Assembly: GCA_044342325.1 (NCBI GenBank)
Contig: JBIIPZ010000009.1
Location: 19,924 to 83,923, forward strand
Reading direction: 5' to 3'
From: Terrimicrobiaceae bacterium
GTDB taxonomy: Bacteria > Verrucomicrobiota > Verrucomicrobiia > Chthoniobacterales > Terrimicrobiaceae
DNA length: 64,000 nt
Shown: positions 1 through 30,485 of the stretch, one piece after another
Numbering within the stretch: the first letter of the stretch is position 1
Layout: every line of letters begins with the position of its first letter
Program-made: the position numbers and the translations under genes
Notes under the pieces: model-generated
Databases searched by the model: none
What the model was told of the DNA's origin: nothing
Seen by the model: only the letters and a program-made list of their open reading frames with translations

Positions 1-2691
1 GTGCGCGAGTGGGGCCCAGCCATTGGGGAAATCAGCAACACCGCCATCGAGGACGCCCGCCGCGACGGCATTAATCTCGACCCCTCAAATGGCCTCGATC
101 CGGAGGCGCGCCTGTGGATGCATCGGGATGGCGTGAGCCTCTGGAAGGATTTTGCTGCCAGCACACGCCGCGCCGTCGAACGCGACAGCGTCCTTGTGGA
201 TAACGGAAATATCGTTCTTCCTGACACCCAGTTGCTGGACAATCTCTACTCGCAGCCGGATTTCCTGACCGATTGGCCGATGGAGGACCTTCGATGGAGT
301 GCCGGCCAACCAGGCATGGTTCCAGGGCTATGGAGCAGTGGCGAAATGGGAAAGGGCACCGAATACCGCGAACTTGCCATGTATGACTACCTCCGAGCCC
401 GCGGCCGGCTCGCGATGGTCAATATGGAGCGCACGATCCTTAAGGACGATTTTTCGGTTCTCAAAGACCACTACGCACGCGGCTTTCAGTTCATGACCCT
501 CTTCAATACCTACGACGGTGATGAGAAATTGGTTGAAGCTGTGGATCGTTGCGACAGCGAGCCCGCACTGCCCGCCGTCCACCGCGAGCCTTCGCTTCTC
601 GCTCTGGATTTTCCGCGACAGAAAAAGTTCGGTCCCGAGGAGGCAGTTGTTTCGAAACAAAATGTTACGATCGAGCATGCCAAGACATTCCGCGCGGGCG
701 AGCACGGCGCCCCCCGCTTGGCCGTGGTCGATTCCGCCAAACCTGGCGATATCACTTACCGCATCGAAAATCCGGACACCTTCACCGCCGCGCTGAATCT
801 CCACTTGCAAGGGCGCATCTCAACCGTGAAGGGAAATAGCATCGAAATCCTCGCCGGGGAGTCGCTGGGAACACTGTCAAAAATCAAGACGCTGACCGCA
901 GATGATCTCCCCACCCCCAAACGGTGGACGCCTCATGTGACCTCCGAGACGACCATTGATCTGGGCCATGCGATGATCGGCAAAACAGAATACTACATCC
1001 GATTCGTGCTGCACTCACCCAGCTCACGAGACGCCGCGTTCCTAATGAAAATCGCCGTCGGCTCGCAGTGGGAACGAAAAAGCGGGTATCTCTCGGGCCA
1101 ACCTCTCAAACGTCAAGACCAGCGGATTCAGAACCTCTGGGTGCAAGATCGGGTGATCGCCGAGAACATGCTTGGGCAATTCACGGAAGCATCCGGAGGC
1201 GAAGCGGACAAATCAGCACACAGAGCGAAAATTCAAAAACAGGCCGAGGATTTGATCAGCCGTGGATGGTATCGCAGCGCCTACCGGTTGCTTGCTGGCG
1301 AGATATCGCAAATCCTCCCCGCTCGCTATGTCGTTCGAGGCGGCGGCACGCTGGACTGCTGGCCGGTGGAAGTCGCCATGCCATCCGAGAAAGACAGTGT
1401 CGTGGTGAGGCTGCTCAGTGTCGCCCCCGAGAAAGTGTCCTTCTCCCTCAAGGCCGATCAAGTAGGGCAGAAAGTCGCATTAGCATTTCCTGGCCTTGAT
1501 CCCTCGAAAAAATGGACCCTCAAAACAACGGGCGTGAACAGCTATGAAATCCTGCCTGCGAAAGACACCGATCTGCTACTTGTCGTCGAGAAAGGGAAGG
1601 TCGGGATCACCATCGGACTCGATCCGGTGCCAACTGCCCCGAAGCAGGCACTCCCCCGCCACATCGTTGGCCGTGTGCTCGGCTGGAATAAGGCCCGCAT
1701 CACCATCGATACGCAGAACCTGGAATTGATGAACAACAACGACTCGATAGCGATCCCGCTCTCCAAAAATGTCAAAGTCTCCCGCAAGGCAGACCAGCTC
1801 ACCGATCCCAAGGCAGGGACAGCCCCTGACAAACTCGACCATGTGGCGCTGGAATTGGATGAAAAAGGCGAGGTCATCAGCGTCGATGCCCGTTACGGCC
1901 GCGATCGTGGACGCATCAAGGAATTCCACGCGCCAGTCTTGATCGGAGACCTCGCCGTCGGCGGCATCACTCTGGAAAACGGCCGCCGCTACGATTTCAA
2001 CTACGACAAGACCCACGGCACCCGCTTTGCCACCGTGGCCTTGAACAACCTGATCCTGAACTACGAACTCACCCACCTCGCGGAGGGGCTAAAACCCGGC
2101 ACCGAGGTCGAGATCGCCTACACACCAGCGATGAAAGAAGGCCGCGCGCCGCGCCTGTTCCTTGTCAACCAGCCGACCCGCGTGCTGCTGGAGGAGGATT
2201 ACACGCTGGCGAACGACGACGCATGGCGCAAAAAAACGACATCCATCGACAGAGTGGATGTGATCAATCACCGACCGGAGCCGAACTATCTTCACAATGT
2301 GGTCATCCGGCTCCTGCGGCCCACCACATGGTTCCAGCCCGGCAGCGTGGTGTATCAGGTGAAAAGTGAAACTCCGCTCGGCGACACCGCGCTCGAGTTC
2401 AATGCCCGCGCCTTCGAGGATTCCAGCCGCGTGGAATTCTTCACCAGTCTGGATGGCAAAAAATGGACCAAGGTCGGCCAGTTCGACAACACCTGGCAGA
2501 ACAACATCCCGCAAAGTCCGAACAGCAAGACCTGGAAATTCCCGCCGCAGACGGTCGACCTGACGCCGAGCGTCAAAGGCCTGAAGGATTTTTACCTGAA
2601 AATCTCCCTCACCACCGGAGATGCCGATGACCGTTTTTGCTTCGGTGGTTTCCGCGTTCTCAGCGCCGACACGACTCTCACAAAAAACTGA
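1..2691 (+). CDS. Large uncharacterised protein, paralogue A1 (subtype I), 5'-truncated by window edge; putative novel glycoside hydrolase-like
   Basis: Starts mid-protein (VREWGP aligns with IREFAP of A3/A5). Shares DG.xLDP, GLWSSGE, NMER, HRPEPNYL and ARAFEDSSRV..GQFDNTWQN with 12636..16256 and 26781..30485. Confidence 0.8.
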   Translation: MREWGPAIGEISNTAIEDARRDGINLDPSNGLDPEARLWMHRDGVSLWKDFAASTRRAVERDSVLVDNGNIVLPDTQLLDNLYSQPDFLTDWPMEDLRWSAGQPGMVPGLWSSGEMGKGTEYRELAMYDYLRARGRLAMVNMERTILKDDFSVLKDHYARGFQFMTLFNTYDGDEKLVEAVDRCDSEPALPAVHREPSLLALDFPRQKKFGPEEAVVSKQNVTIEHAKTFRAGEHGAPRLAVVDSAKPGDITYRIENPDTFTAALNLHLQGRISTVKGNSIEILAGESLGTLSKIKTLTADDLPTPKRWTPHVTSETTIDLGHAMIGKTEYYIRFVLHSPSSRDAAFLMKIAVGSQWERKSGYLSGQPLKRQDQRIQNLWVQDRVIAENMLGQFTEASGGEADKSAHRAKIQKQAEDLISRGWYRSAYRLLAGEISQILPARYVVRGGGTLDCWPVEVAMPSEKDSVVVRLLSVAPEKVSFSLKADQVGQKVALAFPGLDPSKKWTLKTTGVNSYEILPAKDTDLLLVVEKGKVGITIGLDPVPTAPKQALPRHIVGRVLGWNKARITIDTQNLELMNNNDSIAIPLSKNVKVSRKADQLTDPKAGTAPDKLDHVALELDEKGEVISVDARYGRDRGRIKEFHAPVLIGDLAVGGITLENGRRYDFNYDKTHGTRFATVALNNLILNYELTHLAEGLKPGTEVEIAYTPAMKEGRAPRLFLVNQPTRVLLEEDYTLANDDAWRKKTTSIDRVDVINHRPEPNYLHNVVIRLLRPTTWFQPGSVVYQVKSETPLGDTALEFNARAFEDSSRVEFFTSLDGKKWTKVGQFDNTWQNNIPQSPNSKTWKFPPQTVDLTPSVKGLKDFYLKISLTTGDADDRFCFGGFRVLSADTTLTKN

Positions 2692-2692
2692 T

Positions 2693-5818: not shown

Positions 5819-8800
5819 ATGAAAAAAACGATTCTCGCAACACTCGTTGCCCTCACCCCGTTGCTCTCCTTCGCATCCAGCGGGATTTCCGATCAGATTC
5901 AATTCGGAGACGCCGCCAGCGAAAAAAGCCATCGCGCGACCTTCTCATCGGGCGTGGAGAGCAAGAAACTCGACACGACCGTCGGCTTCATGAAGCACAG
6001 CCACGCCACCCGTGAATTTTCTGGCAAAGGCTCCGAGGCCTCCTTCCAGCTCAAAGTGCCGCTCAAAGAAGCCGCTCCGCGCGTTCTCCTCGAAATCCAA
6101 GAAGTCCACGACCGCCGCAATGTCTTCGGCTACTCGGTTTATGCGGGCGGAAAGAAAGTTTACTTCCGCAGCTACGAGGAAATCAGCGGCGGGCCCAACC
6201 ATTACTTCGTGGAAATCGACCGTGACTTGGTTGGCAAAAACGGACTCTTGGATGTCAAAATCGTGAGCGAGGGAACCGCACCCTTCAACATCTCCCAGGT
6301 TTGGATTTACCCCGACTTCAACAAACTGGCCGAGCAAGAGAACATCTTCACCAAGCTGGGCTTCATCGTGGCTCTCTCACCGGAGCTGGTGGGTCTGAAA
6401 GTCGATCCAAAGGACGACAGCGTCGAAACCGGCGTCAAAATCGCCAATGGTATCCGCGAAAAATACGCGACCCAATCCTACGACCTCGGATTCCTGAGTT
6501 TCATCGGATACGCGCGGCGCTCCGAGGAGGAATCCCGCAAGGCGATCGACAAGGCCCTTGCTGTCTCCGCCGCCACCGGCCTGCCCTACCACTTCATGCT
6601 CCAATCCTGGTGGGGCGGCGCCAATGTCGGCCCCGATGGCTTGGGCGGCTACTTCTCCGATCTCAAATACGAATCCGTCAACTACGACCCCGAAACAAAG
6701 GAATTCACCCCCTCTTTTCCGAATCAGTGGGGCAATTCCCTCTGGCCGACCAAAAACAACCCGCACCTCAACAAGGTCAACAACCACCGCATCGGCAATG
6801 TGGCCCGCTACATCGCCGACCGCACCGAAGCGCTTCGCGTCTCCGAAGGCAATGTTCCCGCGCCGGTGATCTATGCCGAGTGGGGCCCTAACTACGGCCC
6901 TGACTACAACGCCGCCGCTGTCGAAGCCGCAAAAAAAGACGGCGTCATCCTCGACCCGCGCGATGGGCTGTCGCGCGAGGAGGCCCAGTGGATTTATGAA
7001 AGCTACGGCCAGTATTTCAACCAGCAGGCGCCAACTTACAAAGAGTCGCTCGGCCGGGGGCATGTGATTGTGAAAGACGGCAAGGCCCAACCTCCCGCCG
7101 ACCCGCTCATCGACAATCTTTACACCCATGGCTTCTGGGACCACGGCAACCCGAACTACGACCGCAAGCAGGGCTACTGGCAGCAATGCATGAACGAAGG
7201 CATGTGGACGAGCGGCGAACTCTACCCCCGCTATCCCCAGACTTTCTACGACTACATCCTGCCCGTGAGCCGTGTGACTTGCGTGAATCTGGAACGCGCC
7301 ATGGTGAACGATCTCGGTTTCATGAAGGACAGCTACGGTCGGGGATTGGAGTTCGTGACCCTCTTCAACTGCAAACCCGGCGACGAAGCCCTGCTAAAGG
7401 CCGTCGATGGCGTGGAGAATCTCCCCAAGCCCGTTGAATCCTACGACCGACATGTCCTTGATGTCTTCTTCGCTCGCGACAAGTCGGTCGAAAAATCCAG
7501 AGGCTTTGTGAATGCGAGTGGCGTGGAAATCGAAGGCTCCAAGTTGCATCCCTCCGAATCCAAAAAAACCGGTCGCGTCGTTTATCGCATCGAGGATTCG
7601 GGGACCGCCTTCGCGAATGGCTTGAAATTGGAAATCGTCGGCAGCATCGGACGCCGCGCGACGGGCGACGACTGGACGATCAAGGTTTTGGCCGGATCGG
7701 ATCCGCAGAAGTTGCAACCCGTGGCGACCCTAACCTCCATCGAACTCGCCAAGGCCAAAGGAAAATCGGCCACGGTGGATCTCGGAGCTGTGGCCAAGGG
7801 TCAAAAGCTACTTTTCACCGCCGTGGAATTGCGCTCCGGCGGTCAACCTGACGAGGTCGAGGTGCGCGAAATTTCCGCCTTCATTCCATGGCCTGAAAAA
7901 TCCGGACAGACCGATGGCTCCGTGCCGACGATGAAACAAAACCGCCTGCGTAGCTTGTGGCTCCAGCAGCGGGCTCGACTCGACCGCGCCATCCGCGACT
8001 TCCAATCCCGCAGTGGCCCCACGGAAATCCTTGCGAAGGCCAAAACCTTGCGTGAAGAAGGCCGCTATGCCACAGCCCACCGCTTGCTGACCGGCGAAAT
8101 TGCCAGTATTCTCCCCGCACGATACTCCATTGCGGGAGAAGGGCCTCTCTCTCCGCATCCAGTCATGGTGAGCGCGGCTGACAAAAAGGCCATCGTGCAA
8201 GTGGAACTTCTCTCCTGCGACAAAAACGGCGCGTCGCTCCGACTAAACTCCGATCGCCCCACCGAAGTCAACCTTCGCTTTGCCAAGCTCCAGACTGGCC
8301 GCAGCTACTCGCTCGTGGAAACGAGCCCCCAGCTCTACCGCGTCGAGCCCGCTGCGAATGCAGAAGCGATTGCTCCGGCAGCTGACGGCACGCTCGCCCT
8401 CAAGCTCCAAAGCGCTCCTCCCGTGATCCAGCCGGAATTCCCGTTTGAGCCGCTCAGGCAGGTTGCGATCCCTCGCCAGACCAAAGGAAAATCCGAGATC
8501 GTGAAGGGAACGATTCGCTCCTTCACGCCTCCCTCACTCGAAGGCGAAGGCTGCAACGGCATTGTTGAAATGGACAACGGCGAGCGCTACGAACTCGCCT
8601 ATCTCCCTTGGTATACCAAGACGAACCTCGTCGGTTGCTCGGACCTGAAATCCCTCGGCTTGGATGGAATCAGCAGCGCCTTCCGGCCCGGATCCTTGAT
8701 CACACTGGAGGTCGATTCCATGACCTACGAAGGCAAGCCGCCCCGCATCATCAAAGCCACCCAGCCGGTAAAAACTCTCCTTTCCGAAGACTACACCAAG

Positions 8801-9214
8801 GCCGACGACACCTGGGCCAGCCGCGCGGCCGAGGTCTCTGGACTCCATGTCAAAGACTACCGGGGCAAAAAGCTCTACCCGGTTAAAAACTGGCAACCTG
8901 GCCATGTGGTCTATCACCTCGAAAATGGAGGAAAACCCTTCGGCCAAACCGCCGTCGGCTTCAACGGACGCGTGATTTTGAACCCCGCCAACAAAGTCAG
9001 CTTCTTCGTCCGCACCGATGGCGGAGACTGGAAGGAATGCGCCGTATTCGTCACCAAGAGCCCGGGATCAAACAACCCCCGCGCCACGAAATTCATCGAT
9101 GTCACCGACCTCGTCAAAGGCAAGACCGCCTTCGACCTCAAAGTCGAAATCCACACCGCCAACGACACCTGGGCCATGGTGGAGGGCCTCCAAGTTAGAA
9201 CCCTCGGGGACTGA
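5819..9214 (+). CDS. Large secreted uncharacterised protein, paralogue A2 (subtype II)
   Basis: Signal peptide MKKTILATLVAL; family motifs VYFRSYEE..GPNHYFVE, GPDGLGGYFSD, SFPNQWG, YAEWGP, WTSGE, NLER. Closest to 19410..23048. Confidence 0.85.
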   Translation: MKKTILATLVALTPLLSFASSGISDQIQFGDAASEKSHRATFSSGVESKKLDTTVGFMKHSHATREFSGKGSEASFQLKVPLKEAAPRVLLEIQEVHDRRNVFGYSVYAGGKKVYFRSYEEISGGPNHYFVEIDRDLVGKNGLLDVKIVSEGTAPFNISQVWIYPDFNKLAEQENIFTKLGFIVALSPELVGLKVDPKDDSVETGVKIANGIREKYATQSYDLGFLSFIGYARRSEEESRKAIDKALAVSAATGLPYHFMLQSWWGGANVGPDGLGGYFSDLKYESVNYDPETKEFTPSFPNQWGNSLWPTKNNPHLNKVNNHRIGNVARYIADRTEALRVSEGNVPAPVIYAEWGPNYGPDYNAAAVEAAKKDGVILDPRDGLSREEAQWIYESYGQYFNQQAPTYKESLGRGHVIVKDGKAQPPADPLIDNLYTHGFWDHGNPNYDRKQGYWQQCMNEGMWTSGELYPRYPQTFYDYILPVSRVTCVNLERAMVNDLGFMKDSYGRGLEFVTLFNCKPGDEALLKAVDGVENLPKPVESYDRHVLDVFFARDKSVEKSRGFVNASGVEIEGSKLHPSESKKTGRVVYRIEDSGTAFANGLKLEIVGSIGRRATGDDWTIKVLAGSDPQKLQPVATLTSIELAKAKGKSATVDLGAVAKGQKLLFTAVELRSGGQPDEVEVREISAFIPWPEKSGQTDGSVPTMKQNRLRSLWLQQRARLDRAIRDFQSRSGPTEILAKAKTLREEGRYATAHRLLTGEIASILPARYSIAGEGPLSPHPVMVSAADKKAIVQVELLSCDKNGASLRLNSDRPTEVNLRFAKLQTGRSYSLVETSPQLYRVEPAANAEAIAPAADGTLALKLQSAPPVIQPEFPFEPLRQVAIPRQTKGKSEIVKGTIRSFTPPSLEGEGCNGIVEMDNGERYELAYLPWYTKTNLVGCSDLKSLGLDGISSAFRPGSLITLEVDSMTYEGKPPRIIKATQPVKTLLSEDYTKADDTWASRAAEVSGLHVKDYRGKKLYPVKNWQPGHVVYHLENGGKPFGQTAVGFNGRVILNPANKVSFFVRTDGGDWKECAVFVTKSPGSNNPRATKFIDVTDLVKGKTAFDLKVEIHTANDTWAMVEGLQVRTLGD

Positions 9215-10919: not shown

Positions 10920-12629
10920 TCATTTTTGTGGCGGGCGGGGGAGGAGAGAAAGACGGGCGTTGGCCCAGATGAAGCGGCCATCGAGGGGGCCGCGTCCGAG
11001 GCCTTCGACTCGCAGCAGAAGATTTTTAACGCCGGTGATATCGAGCTCCAGATTCAGGGTTTCGTTTTTTTGGTCGAGGATGCCCGACTCGAAAAGAATA
11101 CGGCTGTCGCCTTCAATAACACATCGGCACTGGCCCGGAAGGCCGGTGAACACGCCCACCTCGCAGGAAAAGTGGCGGTAGACGCCGCCGAGGTCGAATT
11201 CCAACTCGGCCGGGGCGTGGACGAAGAGTCCCTTCGCACAGGAACGGTCTCCGATCGACAATGCTCCACCATCCCATGACTCGTCGCGGAGGATGCGGCA
11301 AAACGCCGACCAACTTCTTGTCCACGGAACATCGCTCAGGAAAACCTCCCTGGCTTTTCCCCGGACGAAACTCGAAGTGCGCGCCTCCTTGGCGAATCCA
11401 CGGACGAGGTTCCATGCTTTGACGGAAAAGGTGCAATCCACTCCGGGGAGACCGAGTGGCATCTCGATTTTCGTGGCGGTGGTGAAATCCACCTCCGTGC
11501 CATTTCTGGAAATGGAATATCCATCGGCCCCCGAGTCGGGATTCCACGAGAGGCGCACCGAGTCGGGCTGCATTTGCGCGCCGCGGGAATCCCAGGGTTG
11601 CGCCGTAAGCCTCTCCACGGCGGACGGCGCGGGCTTGGGCTCGAAGATTTCGAAATCCCACTCGGGCAGAAATCGCAGCTGAGGGTTCTCTCCTGCCTCC
11701 ATGCGGAATGGAAGCCAGACGGGAGCGCTGGATTCCAAATCGCGCTGGTTCCAGCGGTCGCCGATGTAGACGAACGCATCCGGGCCGAAATTTTCCATCG
11801 GCAGCACCCAGGCGGGTTGCGACGCATAGCCGATCTCAGTTTGTGGGCCAATGCAGGGGTCGCCGAGGAGTTCCCAAGGGCCGAGAGGCGTAGGCGCGCG
11901 CACCGTGAGCAGGAAGTTCGGTTCCCAACCGGTGCAGCCGGAGGTGAACATGTAGACATGCTCGCGCCAGCGGAAGAGGGCGGGCGCTTCGCGGACCAGG
12001 CCTTCGAGAGCCCTTGCCCATGTGACATCGCGAACCGCTGGCCGGCGGATGTCGGTGAACTCGTCGTTCAGCTCGCAGATATGGAGAGTCGCGAGGCCTT
12101 CCGAGCAGTAGATGAAGTAGGCCTTGCCATCGCGATCGACAAAGAGGTTGGTATCCAAAACCGCGCTCGCCTCGCCGGCACGGCGGGCATCTTCAGGGTG
12201 CATATCCTCCTCCACCGGCAAGGGGCGGAATACCTTTTCCAACTGGAATGGTCCCTCGGGCGAGTCGGCCACCGCCACACCGGCCATCGAGAAATCGTAG
12301 GCGCGTCGATCGAGGTGGAGCCACATCACGAATTTCTTCGTGAGCGGATTGAAGATCACCTTTGCCCGCTCGCCGATGCGGTCGGTGTGAAGCGGGCTTT
12401 CGGGATTCGCCGTGTCGGGAGCCAAGGCTGTTCCGAGGCGTTTCCACGAAACCAGGTCGGTCGATCGATAGACCGAGATGCCGGTGAACTAGGGATCCGC
12501 CGGCGAGTGGCGGCCTCCCATGTCCTGTCCATACCAATACCAGTGGTCGCCATGTCGCAGGATCGAGGCGGCATGGGCTTGGATGGGATTTCCATCGACA
12601 TCGAGGAACGGGCGGCCCGGTCGAAACAT
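10920..12629 (-). pseudogene. GH43 (subfamily 24-like, exo-beta-1,3-galactanase type) + FN3-like + NPCBM domain, with in-frame TAG at 12491-12489
   Basis: ATG at 12629, 6 nt after the upstream stop, gives MFRPGRPFLDVDGNPIQAHAASILRHGDHWYWYGQ...DP*FTGISVYRSTDLVSWK, in frame with ERAKVIFN, D..LFVD, REAP, ASQP. C-terminal VFLSD...KGLFVHAPAELEFDLGG is NPCBM-like. Confidence 0.8.
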
Positions 12630-16263: not shown

Positions 16264-17766
16264 TCAGCGGGATTTATTTTGGCGGGAGATCTCCGCGAAT
16301 CGCGCCGCCATCTGGCGGGCAACCTCCGGATATTTGTTGGCGACATTCCGCTCTTGTCGCGGGTCGTCCTTCAGGTTGTAGAGCTGTTCAGCTTGGGCCG
16401 TTTCCAGCAACTTGCCTTGGGCGTCGTGATCGGAGTTCGAGTAGCCGAATTTTTCGAAATAGAAGGTGCCGAACAGTCCGCCGGAGCCGTTGTAGGGCAT
16501 ATAAACCCAGTCGCCGCTCCGCAGCGCGCGGCCACGGCCTGAGTAAACCATCTCGGTGCGGATCGCAGGAGTGTCCACCGGATGCTCAAGCAAGGGCAGT
16601 ATGTTCAATCCATCCGGCGCGGCGTTTTTCGGCAAAAGAATTCCCGAGGCGGCGGCGAATGTCGGGAAGAGATCCGTTAACGAGAGCAACTTGTCGCAGG
16701 TGGTGTCAGCGGGAATTTTTCCAAGCCAGCGGGCGATGAAGGGAACACGGTGCCCGCCTTCCCATGTGTCGGTTTTCAGGCCGAGCCACTCGCCGCTGCT
16801 GTTGTGTCCGAGCGCCATGGTTTCGACAATGTGGCAGCCACCATTGTCGCTGGTGAACACGACCAGTGTATTTTCATCGAAGCCGTGTTTTTTCAGCGAC
16901 TCCATGACCATTCCGACGGCGTGGTCGAGTTGCTGGACATAATCCCCGAGGGCCTCGGCCTGGCTGCTGCCTTGAAATTCCTTCGCGGGAAGGATCGGCA
17001 CATGCGGGGCGTAGAACGGCAGGTAGATAAAGAAAGGTTTGTCCTGACTCTGCTTCGCAATGAAGTCCGACGCGCGCTCGGCGAGAGTGAGGTCGAGCCG
17101 GTCCATGTCGCAGGCTTCGTGGGCCGCCTTGGCTCCCGCACTTCCTCCAGAATTCATCGTGTGCTTCCAGTGGGCGGGCTGCTCCTTGTTCAGACGAAGC
17201 GGATCATTGGGATCGCCTTTGTAGATGCGTGTGTTTTCGATGAACACGAATGGAGGCTGCGAGTGGGAGTGAGGAACTCCGAAGTAGGAGTCGAAGCCGG
17301 TGTTCAGCGGGCCGGGAGTGATTTCGCCATTCCAAAAGGCGTCATCATTCGGTTGCCCAGAGCCCCAGCCGAGGTGCCATTTTCCAAAGGCGGCTGTCTT
17401 GTAGCCGTTGTCCTTGAGGGTCTGCGGCAAGAGGATTTCATTTTCGGCGAAGTAAAGGGCTGGTTCGGTGCGTTTTGCACGCCAATGGTAGCGCCCGGCA
17501 AGAATGCCGTAGCGCGTGGGTTGGCAGACGGCGGCCGGAGCGTGGGCGTCGGTGAACTTCACGCCCTCGGCGGCGAGTTTGTCGATGTTCGGCGTCTTGA
17601 GCAGCTTCGCTCCGTAGCATCCAACATCCCCGTAGCCGAGGTCGTCTGCGAGCATGAGGACGATATTGGGTTTTTTGACAGGCTGCTTGGGGCCTGCCGG
17701 TGCTGCTTTGGCGGCAATTGGAAGCGCGAGTGCAGTCGCGAGAAGGAGGTGGATTTTTTTTAACAT
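16264..17766 (-). CDS. Cys-type sulfatase, secreted (close paralogue of 2693..4180)
   Basis: PNIVLMLADDLG, HAPAAVCQPTRYG, LGLKTDTWEGGHRVPFIARWLGKIPAD, nearly identical to the 2693 gene. Confidence 0.93.
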   Translation of the reverse strand: MLKKIHLLLATALALPIAAKAAPAGPKQPVKKPNIVLMLADDLGYGDVGCYGAKLLKTPNIDKLAAEGVKFTDAHAPAAVCQPTRYGILAGRYHWRAKRTEPALYFAENEILLPQTLKDNGYKTAAFGKWHLGWGSGQPNDDAFWNGEITPGPLNTGFDSYFGVPHSHSQPPFVFIENTRIYKGDPNDPLRLNKEQPAHWKHTMNSGGSAGAKAAHEACDMDRLDLTLAERASDFIAKQSQDKPFFIYLPFYAPHVPILPAKEFQGSSQAEALGDYVQQLDHAVGMVMESLKKHGFDENTLVVFTSDNGGCHIVETMALGHNSSGEWLGLKTDTWEGGHRVPFIARWLGKIPADTTCDKLLSLTDLFPTFAAASGILLPKNAAPDGLNILPLLEHPVDTPAIRTEMVYSGRGRALRSGDWVYMPYNGSGGLFGTFYFEKFGYSNSDHDAQGKLLETAQAEQLYNLKDDPRQERNVANKYPEVARQMAARFAEISRQNKSR

Positions 17767-19410: not shown

Positions 19411-22400
19411 TAGTTTTTTAGTGGTTGTGAGTGGTCGCCCTCGGTGCGGACTTCGATCAAACCGATCGAGCACCAAGTGCTGTTGGTGGTGAGCATTTCA
19501 ACTTTGAGTTCGAAGGATTTTTTTCCACGCACCCATGGGGTCACATCGACCATTTTGAGCGCGCCGAAATTGTTCGAACCGGAGGATGCCGTGACATACT
19601 CGCCGCATGTTTGCCACTCCCCGCCGTCGGTGCGAACGAAGAGGGTGATGCGATTCTCGGGATTGAGAATCAGACGGCCTGTAAAACCCACCGAGGTTTG
19701 CCCCAATGGACGCGGAGCCTCGATGCGATAGACGACATGGCCGGGAGTCCAGGCCTTTTTCGGCCAGAGCTTCCTGCCCTTCAAATCGGCGACATGTATG
19801 TTCTCCACCTCCACGGCTCGCTGCACCCACGAATCATCGGATGTGCCGTAATCCTCCTTGAAAATCGTCTCGACGGGCTGGCTGATTTTCAGGATGCGGG
19901 GTGGACGGTTGTGGCTAGTGTAGGGGGCGTAGGAAACCTCCACCCATTGGCCGGGAGCGAACGCCTGCTTGATCGTCTCGAGGCTGCTGGACTTGAGAGC
20001 CGAGAGGCCAACGACTTCGGTATCAGTCATACCCCGGTTGTAGCCGAGTTCATAGCGGTTGCCGTTGTCGAGTTCGATGATGCCGTTGCTCCGCTCGGGA
20101 TAGACTGAGGGAGGCGTGAAGGATTTGATCGTCCCTGCATCCTTTCCAAATTCGGCATCGATTCGCTCGACCTCCCCGGCGTCGTTGAGTGTCAGGCTCA
20201 GGCGGTCGCCATCATACCTACCACGGTAGCGGTTGTTGTTCACAGGCTCGCCGACCTTGCGTCGGGTGATGAGGGCGTCCTTGACGAGCGGGATGCGCCG
20301 CGCCATTTCCCCGTCGGTGAGTTCAACATCCTGAATCGCAAATCCTCCGCCGGTTCCCTGGGCGACGAATGTTTTCGGCAACGGCGGGAGTTGCGGTTGG
20401 CCGATGGTGAGATCGAAGGACGCCCGGCCTGCGGTTGCGGCAACGGCCTCAGGATCGTCCTTGGCGGCGGGACGCAGATGGAACAATGGTCCGGAGATAC
20501 GGAAAAGCTTCCAAGTGGAATTCTCGGGAAGCCCGCTAAAAGCCACCGAGCTTGGCGTGTCGGTCTCGGCACGCAGTTCGAGATCGATCCCCTCGGGAGA
20601 GATTTTCAAAAGATCAACAACCACCACTGACTCGGGACCCTTCACGGAAACCTCCACTGGTTTGTTGGCGAGTTTGCCGGTGCCTTTCATCGCGAAGCGC
20701 GCGGGAAGGACCTGGGCGTATTCGCGGAATAAAAACTCCAGCGCCTGAGTGTAGAATCCCGAGGTCTTCATCTCGGAGGCTTTGGCGAGCACCTCCCCCG
20801 AACCACCTGCTTGCTCGAACATCTGCACCATGCGATCCAAACGCGCGCGCTGCTGCACCCACAGACTGCGACGGCGGCTGTCGCCGAGGTTTGGAACCCA
20901 TCCGTCCGTTTGGCCCGCTTTGATGCTCCATGGGATGTAGGCCGAAATCTGGCTGATCGTCACCTCGGCGGGCATTCCTTCCGAGGCGATTTTGACTGCC
21001 ACGAACACCGACTTGTTTCCTTTGGCAATGGTGGAAAGATCGACTGTAGCGAAGCTTTTGTTCCCCCATCCGCCACCGGCTATAAAATCGGCTGCAAGGA
21101 GGGTTTTGACTTCCGTCAATTGAGTCGCAGAGGAGCCTGCGAGCACTTTGATGTAAGACCCCTTGAGAGGCACGCGACTGGTTGCCCCCGAAACTTTCAA
21201 CTCAAGGCCGTTGGCAAATGCCGTCTCGGGATCGCTGATTTCACAGATTATTTCCCCCTCCTCCTTGCTTTTGAGAGCGTGAATATTTCCCCCTTTGATC
21301 GCATCGGACAGGCCATGGAGCTTGATCACGCCTGGAGATTTCAAAGGGGATTTGTCGCGTGCAAAATTCACATCAAGCACGCGGCGGGGATAATCGATGG
21401 GAGGGTTCGGCTTGTCGGCGATGCCATCCTCTTTTTTGAGCAAGTCCTCATCGCCGGGCTTCGCGTTGAAGAGACATACGAATTGAAGTCCGTTCCCGTA
21501 GGCGAACGGCATGTAGCGGAGGTCCTGAATCATTACCCTCTCGATGTTCACACAGGCGATGCGTCCGTTGGCCACGACATAGTCATACCAGGCCTGTGGA
21601 TAAGCCTCGGTGAGTTCCCCACTGTTCCACATGCCCTCGTTAAGATTCGCCTGCCAGAAGGCGAATTTGGGATCGTTCAGCGGTCCACCGATTCCCCAGA
21701 ATCCGTGGGTGTAGATGTTGTCGAACACAGGATCTGTTGGAAATTCGACCTTGCCGTTGTCGATCTTGATCGTGCCGCGGCCGAGCCCGGCGCGGTAGGC
21801 TGGCACCTGCTGAGCGAAATACGCGCCGTAGTTTTTGAGCGCCCACTCGGCCTCCTCGCGCGAAATGCCATCCTCGGGATCAAGTGTGATGCCATCCCTC
21901 TTGGCGAGTTCGCGAGTTTGTTGGTTGGCCTCCAGCCCATAGCCCGGGCCCATCTCGGCATAGATCACGCCAGTGGGCAGCTTCGCCCCGCCGAGTTCCA
22001 TTGTGGCGCGGCGGTCCACCAGATAGCGGGTGAGGCGTTCGATGCGGAGGTTGTTGATTTTATTTAGATGCGGGTCGTTTCTTGTGGGCCAGAGCGAGCT
22101 TCCCCATTGGTTCGGGAAGGAGGGATTGTAGGTCTTGGTTTCGGCGTTGTAGCTGACGCCTTCGTATTGAAGATCGGAAAAATACCCGCCGCGTCCATCC
22201 ATGCCTGTGGCAGCGCCACCCCACCAGGAGCTGAACATCAAATGATAGGGCAACCCCGTCGCCGCCGAGATTTCCAGCGTGTCGTCGATCGACTTCTGAC
22301 CCTCTGGGCGGGAACGCAGGGTGTAGGCGACGCTGCCCATCAAGCCCAGCTCATAGGATTGCAAACCGCCGTATTTTTGCTCCAGAGCCTCGACGACCTT

Positions 22401-23048
22401 CATTTTCTGGTCGGGGTTCTTTTTGAGATCGACCGGCACACCGGCGAGTTCCGCCGAAAGGCCGAGGATGAAACCCATCTTGCCGGGCTGGATGGTTTGC
22501 GAGGCGGTTAAAGAAGCGAAGTCCGAGTAGGCCCACACATCCGCGAGGCAAAACGGAACGCTGGATTCGCTCTGGATGCGAATGCGCATTCTCCCGTCCG
22601 CCGGAACTATCGCACGATCCACCTCGACAAAAAAATGATTCGGCCCGGAGCCGGCCTCCTCATAGTTGCGGAAATAGACCTCCTTGCCCGAAACAAAGAT
22701 TCGGTAGCCGAACACGCCCGTTTGGCGGTTGTGGATTTCACGGAATTCCAATGTCAATGGTGTCTTGGATGCGCGCAATTCGGCGGGCGGAACCTTCAAG
22801 TCGAACTCAAGGGTGGCATCACGCCCCTTGAGTTCGCGGGCGGTGTAGCGGCGCTCGAGGACGCCCAGCTTCGAATCGATCTGTATGACCCGCGATTCGC
22901 CGGATGCGACTTTCAAGCCGTGCGAGCTCTCGCTAGCGGGATTTCCAAAGACCAACTGATCGGAAATCCGCGATGCGCTCGGAGCAGCATAAGCAATTGT
23001 TGACAATATCAGAGCGAGAAATATCCCGAGGCGGATGCGTGGTTCCAT
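19410..23048 (-). CDS. Large secreted uncharacterised protein, paralogue A4 (subtype II)
   Basis: Signal peptide; EIHNR, VYFRNYEE..GPNHFFVE, DGRGGYFSD, SFPNQWG, YAEMGP, WNSGE, NIER. Confidence 0.85.
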   Translation of the reverse strand: MEPRIRLGIFLALILSTIAYAAPSASRISDQLVFGNPASESSHGLKVASGESRVIQIDSKLGVLERRYTARELKGRDATLEFDLKVPPAELRASKTPLTLEFREIHNRQTGVFGYRIFVSGKEVYFRNYEEAGSGPNHFFVEVDRAIVPADGRMRIRIQSESSVPFCLADVWAYSDFASLTASQTIQPGKMGFILGLSAELAGVPVDLKKNPDQKMKVVEALEQKYGGLQSYELGLMGSVAYTLRSRPEGQKSIDDTLEISAATGLPYHLMFSSWWGGAATGMDGRGGYFSDLQYEGVSYNAETKTYNPSFPNQWGSSLWPTRNDPHLNKINNLRIERLTRYLVDRRATMELGGAKLPTGVIYAEMGPGYGLEANQQTRELAKRDGITLDPEDGISREEAEWALKNYGAYFAQQVPAYRAGLGRGTIKIDNGKVEFPTDPVFDNIYTHGFWGIGGPLNDPKFAFWQANLNEGMWNSGELTEAYPQAWYDYVVANGRIACVNIERVMIQDLRYMPFAYGNGLQFVCLFNAKPGDEDLLKKEDGIADKPNPPIDYPRRVLDVNFARDKSPLKSPGVIKLHGLSDAIKGGNIHALKSKEEGEIICEISDPETAFANGLELKVSGATSRVPLKGSYIKVLAGSSATQLTEVKTLLAADFIAGGGWGNKSFATVDLSTIAKGNKSVFVAVKIASEGMPAEVTISQISAYIPWSIKAGQTDGWVPNLGDSRRRSLWVQQRARLDRMVQMFEQAGGSGEVLAKASEMKTSGFYTQALEFLFREYAQVLPARFAMKGTGKLANKPVEVSVKGPESVVVVDLLKISPEGIDLELRAETDTPSSVAFSGLPENSTWKLFRISGPLFHLRPAAKDDPEAVAATAGRASFDLTIGQPQLPPLPKTFVAQGTGGGFAIQDVELTDGEMARRIPLVKDALITRRKVGEPVNNNRYRGRYDGDRLSLTLNDAGEVERIDAEFGKDAGTIKSFTPPSVYPERSNGIIELDNGNRYELGYNRGMTDTEVVGLSALKSSSLETIKQAFAPGQWVEVSYAPYTSHNRPPRILKISQPVETIFKEDYGTSDDSWVQRAVEVENIHVADLKGRKLWPKKAWTPGHVVYRIEAPRPLGQTSVGFTGRLILNPENRITLFVRTDGGEWQTCGEYVTASSGSNNFGALKMVDVTPWVRGKKSFELKVEMLTTNSTWCSIGLIEVRTEGDHSQPLKN

Positions 23049-25165: not shown

Positions 25166-26784
25166 TTGTTTTTGACTGGCAGGATGGTGACGTTGAGTTT
25201 TTTGGCTGTCTCAGGGGAAAGATCGGCAAGGATCGCTTGCAAAGGCACTTCGTCTTTGTGGTTGGCCTCTTCGTATTTTTTCATGATGTCCTTCATCACA
25301 GCGGCGACTTCGGGTTCGGTGTTCACAAGGTTTTGAGTCTGCTGCGGATCGGTGCCGAGGTTGTAGAGTTGCTCTTGGGGCGCGTCGGGCTTGATTTTGC
25401 CAGTCTTATCGTAGTCCGAGTGTGTCTGGCCGAGCTTCACGATAGGTCCTTGACTGAAAAGTCCCCCGGGGCCTTGCTGTGGATGGTAGGACCAATCGCC
25501 CACACGGAGCGCGCTGGCTTTTCCTTTGTAAAACATGCCGTCGAGTCCGGGTGCCTTGTCGGAATCGAGAAGAAGAGGAAGCATATTGACGCTGTCCACC
25601 GCCGCGCCCGGCGGCACAGGCACATCCGCCGCGGCCAGGAAGGTGTCATAGAGATCAGTCAGTGAAAAAAGTTTGTTGGTCGTCTTGCCGGCGGCGATTT
25701 TACCAGGCCACCAAGCGATCGTAGGAACGCGGTGCCCTCCCTCCCAGGTGTCGGTCTTGGTTCCGAGATAGTCTCCATTTGTCTTGTAGCCAACCGAGGC
25801 TGTGTCGCCAAAGACCGCACCGCCGTTGTCGCTTGTGAAAACCACCAGCGTATTTTCCGCCAACCCTTTTTCCTGAAGGCAGGCCATCACCTTGCCGACC
25901 GCGAAATCGAGTTGGTTGCAGTATTCCGCATTTCGGACCGCATTGTTGTTTTGCTTTTTGATTCGCTGGCCCAGCGGGCTTTTCCCGCTGAATTCAGGAG
26001 CAACGGCCAGCGGCACATGAGGAGCGAACCATGGCAGGTAGATAAAAAATGGCTTTTCGGGTGTCTGGCGGCCGATGAATTCGCAGGCCTTGTCAGCCAT
26101 GATCAGGTCGAGTCGATACATATCGCAGGCCTCGTGGGCGGCCTTGGCACCGACACTCATTCCCCAGCCCGCAGGCGCATTCGCAGGGGGCTTTATGCCG
26201 CGCGCCTTAGCATCCTCCGAACTGATCATCTCGATCGGGTCTTTAGGATCGCCTTTGTGGATGCGGTTGTTCTCAACAAAAACATAGGGCGGCTGGGCGT
26301 GGCTGTTCGGCATACCGAAGAACCAGTCGAATCCGCATTCGTTCGGACCTGGCTTTAGGTCGCCATTCCAATCCGTCGGCTCGCCTCGATTGGTGAGGCC
26401 GAAGCCCAGGTGCCATTTGCCAAAAGCAGCAGTGTTGTAGCCTGCTTTTTGGAGAAGCTGCGGGAAGAGAATCTCATCTTTTCGGAAATAAATTCCCGAT
26501 TGAACCCGCCCGTAGGCCGAGCGGCCGTAGTAACGACCCGAAAGGATCGCGTATCGAGTGGGTTGGCAGACGGCCGCCGGCGAGTGGGCGTCGGTGAATT
26601 TCAGCCCACCGGCAGCGAGCTTGTCGATGTTGGGTGTCGAGACATCAGTTTGCCCATAGGCGCCCAGATCCCCGATGCCCATATCATCGGCCAGAAACAG
26701 AATAATATTAGGGCGCCTGGATTCTGCAAAGGTTTGCACTACGACCAAAAAAACAAAAAGGACTGGCAGGAGGATTTTTTTCAT
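25162..26784 (-). CDS. Cys-type sulfatase, secreted (close paralogue of 4177..5802)
   Basis: ATG 26784 (ATGA overlap), signal peptide MKKILLPVLF; PNIILFLADDMG, CQPTR, QSGIYF, WEGGHRVP. Confidence 0.93.
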   Translation of the reverse strand: MKKILLPVLFVFLVVVQTFAESRRPNIILFLADDMGIGDLGAYGQTDVSTPNIDKLAAGGLKFTDAHSPAAVCQPTRYAILSGRYYGRSAYGRVQSGIYFRKDEILFPQLLQKAGYNTAAFGKWHLGFGLTNRGEPTDWNGDLKPGPNECGFDWFFGMPNSHAQPPYVFVENNRIHKGDPKDPIEMISSEDAKARGIKPPANAPAGWGMSVGAKAAHEACDMYRLDLIMADKACEFIGRQTPEKPFFIYLPWFAPHVPLAVAPEFSGKSPLGQRIKKQNNNAVRNAEYCNQLDFAVGKVMACLQEKGLAENTLVVFTSDNGGAVFGDTASVGYKTNGDYLGTKTDTWEGGHRVPTIAWWPGKIAAGKTTNKLFSLTDLYDTFLAAADVPVPPGAAVDSVNMLPLLLDSDKAPGLDGMFYKGKASALRVGDWSYHPQQGPGGLFSQGPIVKLGQTHSDYDKTGKIKPDAPQEQLYNLGTDPQQTQNLVNTEPEVAAVMKDIMKKYEEANHKDEVPLQAILADLSPETAKKLNVTILPVKNK

Positions 26785-29700
26785 GGAAGGGATTTTGAGG
26801 ATTTTTCCGTGGCAACCCGGAGTTTTGCAACGCAGAAGCGATGGTCGGCAGAGTTCATTGTCATTTCTATTTTCAGGTAGAATTTTTTCAAGCCCTGAAC
26901 GGAGGGAGTCATGTCGATGAATTGATACGGCAGTTCGTCGAGATTTTGTGAAATATTGTTCTGCCAAGTATTATCGAATTGGCCGCAGCGCATCCACTCA
27001 ACGCCATCGGGGCTGGTATAAACCGTCACGCGACTGGAATCTTCAAACGCCCTTGCGGCAATCTCCACGACAGTGGTGCCGAGGGGTTTTTCGTTTTGGA
27101 TCAAATAGGTCACGCTCCCTGGCAGGAAGGGCTTGAGTGGGCGGAGGAGCGCCATCTCAACGCGATACAGGTAGTTCGGCTCAGGTTTGTGGACGACCAC
27201 ATCGGCATCCCGGATTCCAACCGTGGCGTTTTTCCAAGAACTGTCGGTAGCTTTTGTATAATCGACATCAAGCAGGATTTCGCGGGCCTGCCTAACCTCC
27301 AGCAAACGCGGAATGGAGTGCTCCGATTGGCACGGGGTGAATCGCAACTCGACTTCATGTCCGGGCTTGATGGCGTCCTTCAGGGCGCTGATCTCGTAGG
27401 CCGTGAGGGTTCCCTGGATGGCAACCGTGTCGAACTTCGTCACGGCCTTGTCGAACAGGAGTTCATATCGGTTCCCGCTTTCCATTTCGATGATGCCATT
27501 CGAGGGCTCCCCGACGATCTCAGGTGACTCAAATTTTTTGATTCGTCCCTTTTCGTAACCATATCTGGCCTTCACCGCCGTGACCTCGCCGGCCTCGTTG
27601 GTGTTAACAATGACCTCGTCATGGCGTTGAGGCATCTCGCCCTTGGCAGCCGCCTCTGTGCCCTCCATGCAGGCGGCCGAACGGGTGAAAACGGCATCCT
27701 TGGCGACCGGGAGGCTCATGCTCGACGCATAGTCCATGATCTCCAGATCCTGCGTGTCCACCTTGATGCGGTGTTTGTCTCCGGAAAGGAATCGGGCGAC
27801 AAATCGGGAACGCAGCTTGGGAGAGTGATCGGAAGGATTGCGGTGCGTGAGATCGAACGAAACTCGGCCGTTCTGAGGTCTGCGCCCGTTCGCGGTTTCG
27901 GTCAATTCGTAGCGTCCCTGACCCAGTGGGCGCAGCTTCCATTCGCCAGATGCTCCGAGGTTTTCCATGGCGATGGATAGCGGCTGGCTATCGCGACCCG
28001 ACTTGATGCTGAAAACGCAGCCCTCGGATCCGATTTTTTCGATGGTGAAAAATCCCCAATCCTCGGGACGTTCGAGCTTCAACTCGATGGGATAGCGCCC
28101 CAGACGACCATGCCCCCGCACCAAGTAGGTAGCAGGGAGCAGCTGGGAAATTTCCGATGCGAGGAGACGCCTCGCGCTGCCATACCAACCGCGCTCAAAG
28201 AAATCCTTTGCCTGACGATAAACCTCATCCTCGCCGCCAGTGGCAAAATATTTTTTCAAAAGGCTCGAGGCGATGGCGCGTTCCTGGGTCCAGAGCTGGA
28301 GCGTGCGTTGCTCACTCTTGCTCAGCGAGGGTTGGGCGAAGTAGCCGCTCTGCCTGGGCCAACTGGATTGCACATTGAGACTGAGCAAAAACGCCGCATC
28401 CGGGGCGTGCGTGGCGTTGAAGACGATCTTTAAATAAACGGTTTTTTGACCAATGGTCGAAGGACCGAGATCGAGGAGCTTGTGGGAAGTCATCCACGGC
28501 GTCCAGTGATTCGGGTCTGGCAGGTTTTTCTCCGTGAGCGTGGCGACTTTTTCCAAGCGCTCGAGGGAGGGGCCAACGAAGACCTCGATGTTGTTCGCCT
28601 CGCCTGGCGAGATGCGCCCATCAAGGTCCAAGGCGAGCGGTGCGGTGAAAGCGTTGCCTGAATTTGTCAGCTTGTAGATCAACTCTCCAGGCGCGGACAC
28701 ATCCTCGACCGCCAGGCGCAGCTTGCTGTGAACCTTCATGTTTTTTTGAGCAACAAGTTTGTCCTTCGGTCCGGCATGGAAATCCCGCTGCACGATCACA
28801 TCGAGCAGGGCGGGCTGGCGATGCACAGGAGGATCGATGGGATCGTTGGCGATTCCATCCACCTCGCGGACAAATTTCTCATCACCAGGATCAGCATTGA
28901 AGAAGCAGAGGAACTGAAAGCCTCGCTCGTAATGGCGCTTCATCACACTGAAGTTCTTTTTCAGGATCGTGCGCTCCATATTGATCATCGAGAGCTTCCC
29001 TCGGGCGCGCAGGTAGTCATACATGGCGATATCGCGGAAGTTCACTCCCTCACCCATTTCCCCGCTGCTCCAGAGTCCATCGACCATGCCATGCTGACCA
29101 CCACCCCAGCGCGGATCGTTCATGGGCTTGTCGGTAAGAAAATCCGGGTGAGCGTAAAGATTGTCGAAAAACTGCTCCTCGGGCAGCAGGAGCTTGCCTT
29201 GATCCACAATCGCGATATCCCGACCGATGTTTCGCTGCGAGCTATCGGCGAATTCCTGCCAGGTGCGAACGGCATCCCGGTGCATCCAGAGGCTTTCCTC
29301 GAAGCTCATGCCATCGGTGGGATCAAGGGTGACACCATCCCTCGCGGCCGCCTCGATGACGGCTTGGGAAATCTCACCGCTCGCTGGGGCAAATTCGCGC
29401 ACGATCATTGGCTGCGCGGGCTGTCCTTTTAGACGAAGCCAGGCAAGTTGCTCCTGAATGCCCTGCATGAGCTGCTGGAAGCGTTTTTCCAAAAAAGCAT
29501 TCATCACCGGATTGCGAAGGGCGGCACCGGGAGTGTTGCTCCACATGTTTGGCCATGAGGCGCGGTAGGTGCCAAGCGCGGGATCATAGATCGTGTGCGT
29601 GTATTGGATGTCGCTGAAATAGCCCCCACGCCCGTCGGTTCCCGTGGGCTTGCCTCCCCATCCCGTGCCATTGACGATCCAGAGGCCCGGCATGCCGGTC

Positions 29701-30485
29701 TCCGAGGAAAGGTCAATTTGGGAGAGGAGCTCTTTTCTGCCTTCCTCCGGATCGATGTGCCCGTAGCCGCCAGCGAAGTTCAAAAAACCAACCGGTCCGT
29801 AATCCTGAAACCCGGAATATGCAGCCCGCATTTTTTGGATTCGCTGGAGTTCGACACCCTCGCCTTGCAAGCGATTCGCGTCGCTTTCACCCTCTAGGCG
29901 GATCGAGCTGGTTGGAAAAATAATCGCCATTGGGCGAAAGACCTTTTCGGGCTTGGCCACCTTTTCAAAAAAGTCTTCATACACCCAGATTTTGCTAATG
30001 CTGAATGGCCCGCCCCCGTCGTGCCGCAGCGTGATCTCTAGCGGACTCCGACCTCTCAGAAATTCCTTGGGCACTTCTACAAAATAGTGGTTCGGCCCCG
30101 CGCCGAGTTCTTGGTAGGTGCGAAAATAGACCTCTTTTCCATTCACGAGCACGGTGTAGCCGAAAGCCTCCGGGCGGCGGTTGTGGATTTCCTGGATTTC
30201 CAGAATCAAACAGTTCGTTCCGGCTTGAAACGGCACCCGGAGCTGGATTCGGCTGCCTTTGCGGGGAAGAGTCTTCACGGGGAAGCCTTCTTGGAAGGCC
30301 CCCATCTCGGTTTCGATCCTTCCGTTTTCCACATCGACAGACTCCGAGACCACCGCCTGAGGAGCCGTGCAATCAATGACCAACGAGGCCCGCTCTTTTT
30401 CCTGAGGCACGACGGCCAAAGCGAAGCAGGTTAGCAGAGCCACTCCCATAAAGGGAAAAAAAGTGACACCCCATGGGTTACGCAT
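26781..30485 (-). CDS. Large secreted uncharacterised protein, paralogue A5 (subtype I)
   Basis: N-terminal hydrophobic signal; EIHNRR, VYFRTYQELGAGPNHYFVE, DGRGGYFSD, VREFAP, WSSGE, NMER, HKPEPNYL. Confidence 0.85.
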   Translation of the reverse strand: MRNPWGVTFFPFMGVALLTCFALAVVPQEKERASLVIDCTAPQAVVSESVDVENGRIETEMGAFQEGFPVKTLPRKGSRIQLRVPFQAGTNCLILEIQEIHNRRPEAFGYTVLVNGKEVYFRTYQELGAGPNHYFVEVPKEFLRGRSPLEITLRHDGGGPFSISKIWVYEDFFEKVAKPEKVFRPMAIIFPTSSIRLEGESDANRLQGEGVELQRIQKMRAAYSGFQDYGPVGFLNFAGGYGHIDPEEGRKELLSQIDLSSETGMPGLWIVNGTGWGGKPTGTDGRGGYFSDIQYTHTIYDPALGTYRASWPNMWSNTPGAALRNPVMNAFLEKRFQQLMQGIQEQLAWLRLKGQPAQPMIVREFAPASGEISQAVIEAAARDGVTLDPTDGMSFEESLWMHRDAVRTWQEFADSSQRNIGRDIAIVDQGKLLLPEEQFFDNLYAHPDFLTDKPMNDPRWGGGQHGMVDGLWSSGEMGEGVNFRDIAMYDYLRARGKLSMINMERTILKKNFSVMKRHYERGFQFLCFFNADPGDEKFVREVDGIANDPIDPPVHRQPALLDVIVQRDFHAGPKDKLVAQKNMKVHSKLRLAVEDVSAPGELIYKLTNSGNAFTAPLALDLDGRISPGEANNIEVFVGPSLERLEKVATLTEKNLPDPNHWTPWMTSHKLLDLGPSTIGQKTVYLKIVFNATHAPDAAFLLSLNVQSSWPRQSGYFAQPSLSKSEQRTLQLWTQERAIASSLLKKYFATGGEDEVYRQAKDFFERGWYGSARRLLASEISQLLPATYLVRGHGRLGRYPIELKLERPEDWGFFTIEKIGSEGCVFSIKSGRDSQPLSIAMENLGASGEWKLRPLGQGRYELTETANGRRPQNGRVSFDLTHRNPSDHSPKLRSRFVARFLSGDKHRIKVDTQDLEIMDYASSMSLPVAKDAVFTRSAACMEGTEAAAKGEMPQRHDEVIVNTNEAGEVTAVKARYGYEKGRIKKFESPEIVGEPSNGIIEMESGNRYELLFDKAVTKFDTVAIQGTLTAYEISALKDAIKPGHEVELRFTPCQSEHSIPRLLEVRQAREILLDVDYTKATDSSWKNATVGIRDADVVVHKPEPNYLYRVEMALLRPLKPFLPGSVTYLIQNEKPLGTTVVEIAARAFEDSSRVTVYTSPDGVEWMRCGQFDNTWQNNISQNLDELPYQFIDMTPSVQGLKKFYLKIEMTMNSADHRFCVAKLRVATEKSSKSLP

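Follow-up and report, generated by a model that had tools for sequence, protein, structure and literature searches.

A 64,000-nucleotide stretch of DNA from a Terrimicrobiaceae bacterium (assembly GCA_044342325.1, contig JBIIPZ010000009.1, positions 19,924 to 83,923 of the forward strand; hereafter the window) carries five paralogous genes, A1 to A5, among genes for sulfatases, esterases and glycosidases. The products of these genes are probably anciently diverged members of a small, secreted, multi-domain carbohydrate-active family, whose modelled barrel suggests that they are glycosidases. We put the probability of this reading at about 0.6. It draws on the sequence comparisons, the predicted fold of the barrel and of the domain preceding it, the conservation of residues at the modelled catalytic face, and the gene neighborhoods of the family.

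The five open reading frames (ORFs) lie where the initial annotation had placed them, and their products align colinearly over about 1,200 residues. The proteins are about 1,130 to 1,265 residues long, carry signal peptides, and share 30 to 54% pairwise identity; relative to A5, whose residue numbering is used throughout, the identities are 54% for A3, 46% for A1, and 30% for both A4 and A2. A search of the source assembly (2.93 Mb, 86% complete) with A5 recovered only A1 to A5, all on a single 84-kb contig, with E-values between 0 and 5.7e-164. A1 is cut by the edge of the window; the copy in the genome is complete at 1,265 residues and has a signal peptide and the same N-terminal domain. The longest reading frame of A3 extends to position 16346; we preferred the ATG at 16256 because it yields a canonical signal peptide (MKPLRLLAALACALTPSAFA) and avoids an overlap with the neighboring sulfatase gene (16264..17766). 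All of the motifs quoted in the initial annotation were present in the alignment of the paralogues, with the small deviation that A5 reads FLCFFN instead of FxxLFN.

Comparison with Pfam, NCBIfam and the PDB sets A1 to A5 apart as a small, unannotated family. Against Pfam-A, in a release dating from 2025, the paralogues had a few weak matches only (E 0.00087 to 0.32), every one of them under the curated cut-off. The single match to NCBIfam 20.0 scored 12.7 bits against a cut-off of 152 bits, and PDB sequence profile searches with the whole protein and with the barrel alone returned no matches at E ≤ 10. The initial annotation did not recognize the family and had expected no or weak glycoside hydrolase matches from hidden Markov model (HMM) searches of databases such as Pfam. 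A word-indexed protein search retrieved 87 homologous clusters of about 950 to 1,350 residues; none has a precomputed Pfam domain, and the sole name given among them is "hypothetical protein". A barrel-only profile, built from 45 sequences with Firmicutes included, was run against 1,835,955,588 cluster representatives and matched 186 at E ≤ 1e-3, 168 at E ≤ 1e-10 and 135 at E ≤ 1e-30. When 36 of these 186 members, chosen as the most distant or the largest, were scanned, none had a Pfam domain over the barrel; the accessory modules found in them (SLH, Big_2, F5/8 type C, NedA-like, CE2_N, Golvesin_C and 3-keto-disaccharide hydrolase-like) are of kinds typical for carbohydrate enzymes. In hhalign comparisons of the family with the glycoside hydrolase (GH) family GH42 protein of the window and with a GH35, the probability was 0.2% in each case. 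Look-alikes of the barrel proposed by a language model reached a best score of only 0.85 or lower and were set aside.

No publication on this protein family was found in the literature, and a literature search for the CAZy numbers GH196 to GH200 returned nothing relevant to glycosidases. The barrel might belong to an existing CAZy family, for example a recent one up to GH195 or beyond, that lies outside Pfam, NCBIfam and the PDB, in which case the proteins would only be new members of that family. CAZy numbering grows quickly, and a GH99-like endo 6-sulfo-alpha-1,3-mannanase has been named GH195 and stated to form a new CAZy family (PMC13063451). In that enzyme the GH99-like domain is described as fused to a sulfatase (PMC13063451), an architecture that differs from that of A1 to A5. 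Membership in an existing family is, in our estimate, the least probable of the alternatives considered here.

The barrel was modelled from residues 170 to 600 of A5, folded with an 88-row alignment of the family. The model (mean predicted local distance difference test, pLDDT, 84.1; predicted template modelling score, pTM, 0.81) has eight beta/alpha units in a clear run. The TIM barrel proposed in the initial annotation is thus reproduced as a predicted (beta/alpha)8 barrel, and the nearest structures, those of GH14, GH42, GH35 and GH5, are of the classes it had named (clan GH-A, GH14 and GH42). A Foldseek search of the barrel against the PDB gave 105 matches at E ≤ 1e-3. The matches listed are glycosidase or glycosidase-like barrels (GH35, GH14, GH26, GH5, Cwp19, PgaB and GH168). 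The template modelling scores (TM-scores) lie between 0.33 and 0.49 at about 10% identity, and no solved structure is close. The fold class is predicted to be that of the "4/7" glycosidases.

The structures nearest in shape to the A5 barrel are GH14 beta-amylases, from Bacillus cereus (1b90) and Paenibacillus polymyxa (3voc), at 4 to 9% identity. However, the paralogues have no match to the GH14 model PF01373 at E ≤ 1, and neither of two profiles found a PDB sequence match at E ≤ 10. The two groups also differ in architecture and context: the paralogues have a predicted fixed N-terminal domain resembling the carbohydrate-binding module (CBM) family CBM35 and a train of C-terminal domains, both of which GH14 enzymes lack, and GH14 enzymes act on starch, whereas the gene context of the paralogues indicates glycans with mannose and rhamnose. 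The barrel fold is likewise similar to that of clan GH-A (GH42, GH35, GH164, GH5), but the hhalign probabilities for GH42 and GH35 and the absence of Pfam matches indicate no relationship in sequence.

Three glutamates, E364, E476 and E504, are invariant in A1 to A5, as had been reported in the initial annotation; E396 and E536 are likewise invariant across the five. In the wider family the statement about the three no longer holds, and E476 is the only Glu that is invariant. Besides E476, the residues N502, Y491 and G522 are invariant in the family alignment (88/88 each), and D284 and D292 are present in all 87 ungapped rows. D284, D292, Y295 and N502 remain invariant when Firmicutes are added to the alignment. 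E364, E476, E504 and the DGxGGYFSD loop all lie on the C-terminal, catalytic face of the modelled barrel, and the predicted convergence of the conserved glutamates on a cleft is borne out at the level of model topology only. The E of xxE[WFM]xP had been proposed as acid/base and the E of NxER as nucleophile; the modelled positions at strands 4 and 7 are consistent with these roles, although each of the two residues is replaced in a few divergent clades. The invariant E476 stands at a position that is occupied by Tyr or His after strand 6 in clan GH-A.

Several observations weigh against a glycosidase that uses this pair. E364 is retained in 82 of the 88 sequences and replaced by S, C or D in the other six; for E504 the retained count is 83, with T, F or Y in the remaining five. 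If these two residues are the catalytic pair, then the clades without one of them are inactive or work differently. The residue preceding E364 is Arg or Thr; members from the Planctomycetes-Verrucomicrobia-Chlamydiae (PVC) group read R-E, in contrast to the N-E of clan GH-A, where Asn is usual before the acid/base Glu. The nearest structures share just 4 to 10% identity with the barrel, and a TIM barrel alone is no proof of hydrolysis. On the supporting side, the homologues from Cohnella read TENEP at strand 4, which resembles the N-E-P motif of clan GH-A.

Two alternatives bear on these residues. The proteins could be glycoside hydrolases with other machinery, either inverting enzymes of the GH14 type or enzymes in which E476 works with one of the two aspartates, D284 or D292, in the mobile loop that follows strand 3. 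E476 and the two aspartates are the better conserved residues; against this alternative, the classical positions at strands 4 and 7 are those of E364 and E504, which are retained in most of the family, and we consider it unlikely. The proteins could also be carbohydrate-active without being simple hydrolases, that is, transglycosylases, phosphorylases or lyases, or else surface proteins with a decayed barrel that bind glycans and have no catalytic function. E364 and E504 are replaced in some clades; however, A1 to A5 retain all three glutamates together with D284, D292 and N502 at the catalytic face of the model, the best structural matches are hydrolases, and secretion speaks against phosphorylases. 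We regard this second alternative as quite improbable, and continue with A1 to A5 as putative barrel glycosidases.

The domain preceding the barrel comprises 137 residues and is predicted to adopt a fold of the carbohydrate-binding-module type. It is CBM35-like, with nearest structures 12 to 13% identical, and shares its jelly-roll fold with CBM35, CBM6 and CBM36 without a match in sequence: none of 36 N-domains matched the Pfam models CBM_6 or CBM_35 at E ≤ 10, and a profile of the N-domain found nothing relevant among PDB chains at E ≤ 10. No other part of the protein is as well conserved: across 36 sequences from Cohnella and PVC bacteria, E99, H101, R103, R122, Y124, G130 and W167 do not vary. 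We co-folded the N-domain and the barrel as two chains. The docking had a median interaction score (ipSAE) of 0.76, compared to 0.01 for the best control; the 0.76 mark is reached by 116 of 157 solved complexes and by 2 of 215 mismatched pairs. Between runs, at least 43% of the contacts are the same, and the partner pLDDT is at least 86. The model thus counts as support for binding and not as proof of it. On the N-domain side, the confident interface includes H101, R103, Y124 to E126, and G130 to H133 (GPNH), of which H101, R103, Y124, E126 and GPNH are invariant; on the barrel side, it includes W409, residues 458 to 469 in the loop that leads into strand 6, and helix 6, which bears the invariant D490 and Y491.

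Because both parts belong to one chain, the docking would represent a fixed intramolecular packing, and the unusual conservation on both sides would be due to the location of these residues in the predicted interface. In CBM35, CBM6 and CBM36 the fold is the same, but in the paralogues the invariant residues of the domain face the barrel in the prediction. The N-domain is therefore predicted to be an integral buttress of the catalytic domain, beside the loop that bears E476, and not a free binding module. Of the N-terminal accessory carbohydrate-binding domain described in the initial annotation, the CBM-like fold stands, whereas the free accessory role gives way to that of a predicted fixed part of the catalytic unit. 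Two other assignments of this domain were considered. An assignment to DUF6805, suggested by a language-model score of 0.93, was dropped when none of the 36 N-domains matched that family by HMM. The E-I-H and Y-F-R-T-Y motifs of the domain resemble motifs of PL7; an independent, lyase-like catalytic jelly roll was rejected given the 137 residues, the CBM35-like fold, and the location of the motif residues in the barrel interface.

Behind the barrel, the domain at A5 residues 561 to 725 is homologous to the C-terminal domain at residues 1091 to 1234 (hhalign probability 96.5%, E 9.3e-10, 108 columns). The C-terminus of A1 has a weak match to the F5/8 type C domain of Pfam (E 0.1, under the cut-off). 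The several C-terminal beta-domains described in the initial annotation are plausible in light of these comparisons.

A FastTree phylogeny was calculated for 91 family members, and each paralogue falls in a different old clade. The nearest homologues of A1, A2 and A3 come from other assemblies (P0059, P0089 and P0024, at 94%, 89% and 93% identity, respectively). A5 is found in its own clade of close homologues, and A4 is long-branched and sister to A2 (46%). Because each paralogue groups separately with orthologues from elsewhere, the phylogeny identifies A1 to A5 as long-standing, diverged copies and not as recent duplicates. Among species-representative genomes, the carriers of the family are freshwater metagenome-assembled genomes (MAGs) of Terrimicrobiaceae, Chthoniobacterales, Rariglobus, Kiritimatiellae and Planctomycetota. 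The family also has more distant members, which were found in Cohnella, Paenibacillus agaridevorans and gut Clostridia; the whole core of about 1,150 residues is conserved in these Firmicutes, and their proteins are colinear with A5. The homologue from Cohnella fermenti is 28% identical to A5 over 1,168 residues (E 1e-116) and lies within a 2,029-residue, SLH-anchored protein; a homologue from a Clostridia MAG is 28% identical over 997 residues. A sample of 300 genomes from across the phylum, 293 of which have a completeness of 90% or more, contained no family match at E ≤ 1e-10; a complete genome of the same genus was part of this sample.

The initial annotation had described the paralogues as embedded among sulfatases, an esterase and glycosidases. 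This description is accurate: four sulfatase genes, a SASA-type esterase, a GH43-like protein with an NPCBM domain, and a six-hairpin GH52/GtaA-like protein are encoded between them (Table 1). Past the paralogues follow SSF, LacI, HAD, GH38, MFS and GH42 genes, and further on a gene for FGE and more sulfatases. The part of the contig upstream of the window encodes an AraC regulator, a 760-residue ORF, two sulfatases, a GDSL esterase, an MGH1/rhamnosidase-like six-hairpin protein, and L-rhamnose isomerase. Nine of the 15 sulfatase genes of the 2.9-Mb assembly and its only GH38 are located on this 84-kb contig, together with the FGE gene. The GH38 of the window is of the cytoplasmic type; among NCBIfam models it comes nearest to mannosylglycerate hydrolase, with a score of 414 bits where the cut-off is 1,138.

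Gene contexts were counted over 65 related loci, of which 25 from PVC bacteria and 10 from Firmicutes are at least 10 kb long. In the PVC loci, a sulfatase is found beside the family in 16/25, a SASA esterase in 10/25, and GH38 in 5/25; in the Firmicutes loci, GH38 is found in 8/10 and a sulfatase in 0/10. A sulfated polysaccharide had been suggested as the target. The sulfatase island of this genome agrees with that suggestion; the family as a whole, however, is not tied to sulfated substrates, and GH38 is its partner across phyla. In Firmicutes, a locus typically carries the family member together with LacI, GH38 and an ABC sugar transporter. GH78 rhamnosidases are encoded in loci L043, L058 and L060, an MGH1-like GH63 in L060, and SGNH esterases in L052 and L056; the L-rhamnose isomerase gene RhaA on the contig of A1 to A5 fits the GH78 rhamnosidases beside the family in Firmicutes. 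Over 949 residues, the GH38 of the window shares 48.7% identity with its counterpart beside a family member in a Clostridia MAG, and the adjacent HAD genes are 52 to 53% identical between the window and gut Clostridia MAGs. The HAD and GH38 genes compared with those of the window lie at L043:4976-8908 and L046:461-1414. These similarities suggest the transfer between phyla of a module made up of GH38, HAD and the family member.

Other PVC loci carry GH29, GH35, GH2, GH1 or GH52, or PL8 with GH88, instead. Because the neighboring glycosidase families vary in this way, different clades probably meet different glycans. This variety also adds to the points on the opposing side: with neighboring families so varied, no single substrate can be read from the context. 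To this we add that the co-occurrence counts are not independent, because loci overlap on one contig or stem from related MAGs. From the context, our guess at the substrate class is a glycan that contains mannose and rhamnose, is acetylated and, in PVC bacteria, sulfated.

If A1 to A5 are barrel glycosidases, the catalytic unit would be a two-domain module, in which the CBM35-like jelly roll is in rigid contact with helix 6 of a "4/7" barrel and with the loop that leads into its strand 6. Behind the barrel would come a jelly roll and a helical linker, then further domains and finally a repeat of the jelly roll. Glycosidic bonds would be hydrolyzed at the C-terminal face of the barrel, where E364 may serve as acid/base and E504 as nucleophile or base, with E476, D284, D292 and N502 holding the substrate. 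The substrate might be an extracellular or periplasmic, O-acetylated and sulfated heteropolysaccharide with alpha-mannose and L-rhamnose, such as cyanobacterial or microalgal mucilage, and each paralogue could attack a different linkage or decoration. Sulfatases and esterases would strip the substituents, and the oligosaccharides would be imported through the SSF and MFS transporters (ABC transporters in Firmicutes). GH38 together with the six-hairpin glycosidases would release mannose, and rhamnose would pass to RhaA.

A more far-reaching version of this proposal is tentative. A1 to A5 might represent a new GH family, possibly one that bridges GH14 and clan GH-A, with an obligate module of jelly roll and barrel kept as a 1,150-residue core from freshwater Verrucomicrobiota, Planctomycetota and Kiritimatiellae to soil Cohnella and gut Clostridia. 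It might target mannose- and rhamnose-containing glycans, sulfated in lakes, that lack a known backbone-cleaving enzyme, and the five paralogues might have complementary specificities. Sulfated, acetylated heteropolysaccharides of cyanobacteria and microalgae are a large and poorly understood pool of carbon in lakes, and to our knowledge the enzymes that make the first cut in such polysaccharides are mostly unknown. With five copies in the main sulfatase island of a small genome, the family offers enzyme discovery a concrete target. If active, it would be a new addition to the families of CAZy and could provide tools for the analysis of complex glycans; annotators, too, would gain a reference point for about 190 orphan protein clusters.

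Table 1. Features of the A1 to A5 locus. Positions refer to the window, except for the two genes marked L066, which lie upstream of it on the same contig (G000:C66).
Feature	Position	Strand	Remarks
A1, 3' part	1..2691	+	gene start 1,107 nt upstream of the window (G000:C66:18817); full ORF 1,265 aa
Two sulfatases	2621-4180, 4177-5802	+	PF00884, E 3e-55 and 6.5e-54
A2	5819..9214	+	1,131 aa; Sec-type signal peptide
328-aa ORF	9470-10456	+	no Pfam or NCBIfam match
GH43-like protein with NPCBM domain	10920..12425	-	
A3	12636..16256	-	preferred start 16256; longest ORF 12636..16346
Sulfatase	16264-17766	-	
SASA-type carbohydrate esterase	17776-19476	-	
A4	19410..23048	-	1,212 aa
Six-hairpin GH52/GtaA-like protein	23057-25165	-	
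Sulfatase	25162-26967	-	
A5	26781..30485	-	1,234 aa
N-terminal CBM35/CBM6-like beta-jelly roll, A5 36-172	29970..30380	-	predicted docking on barrel
(beta/alpha)8 barrel region, A5 170-600	28686..29978	-	structure model
DGxGGYFSD loop, D284..D292	29610..29636	-	after strand 3; low model confidence
E364 codon	29394..29396	-	directly after strand 4; candidate acid/base
E476 codon (WSSGE)	29058..29060	-	two residues after strand 6
E504 codon (N-x-E-R)	28974..28976	-	last residue of strand 7; candidate nucleophile
Domain after barrel, A5 561-725	28311..28805	-	homologous to C-terminal domain
C-terminal domain, A5 1091-1234	26784..27215	-	repeat of domain after barrel
Uptake and finishing genes: SSF transporter, LacI, HAD hydrolase, GH38 alpha-mannosidase, MFS transporter	30489..39236		
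HAD and GH38	33685-37574		HAD is 327 aa
FGE gene	48360-49535		
RhaA L-rhamnose isomerase	L066 6245-7576		about 11 kb upstream of A1; E 1e-194
760-aa ORF between AraC regulator and sulfatases	L066 15518-17800	-	no Pfam or NCBIfam match

The sequence composition of the locus showed no anomaly. When positions 9000-13000 were scanned for promoters and terminators, the sites were no more numerous than in shuffled controls, and an expression look-up listed no RNA holder for A5. At another locus, L015, a 766-residue ORF takes the same position beside AraC as the 760-residue ORF upstream of A1. Farther downstream in the window, the reverse strand between 41516 and 47880 encodes proteins of 333, 1,138, 301 and 249 residues without Pfam families. 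The 301- and 249-residue products have weak prepilin-type N-terminal methylation motifs (E about 1e-3), one of them with a weak GspH match, and may be pseudopilin-like secretion or surface proteins. An ORF of more than 1,724 residues (58826-64000, forward strand) runs off the window; it contains 12 PATR repeats (passenger-associated-transport, E 3.7e-87) and resembles an autotransporter-like surface protein. The longest ORF of one sulfatase (56168-57841) overlaps the end of an MGH1-like glycosidase gene (54610-56295) by 128 nucleotides; the true start of this sulfatase is probably a later codon.

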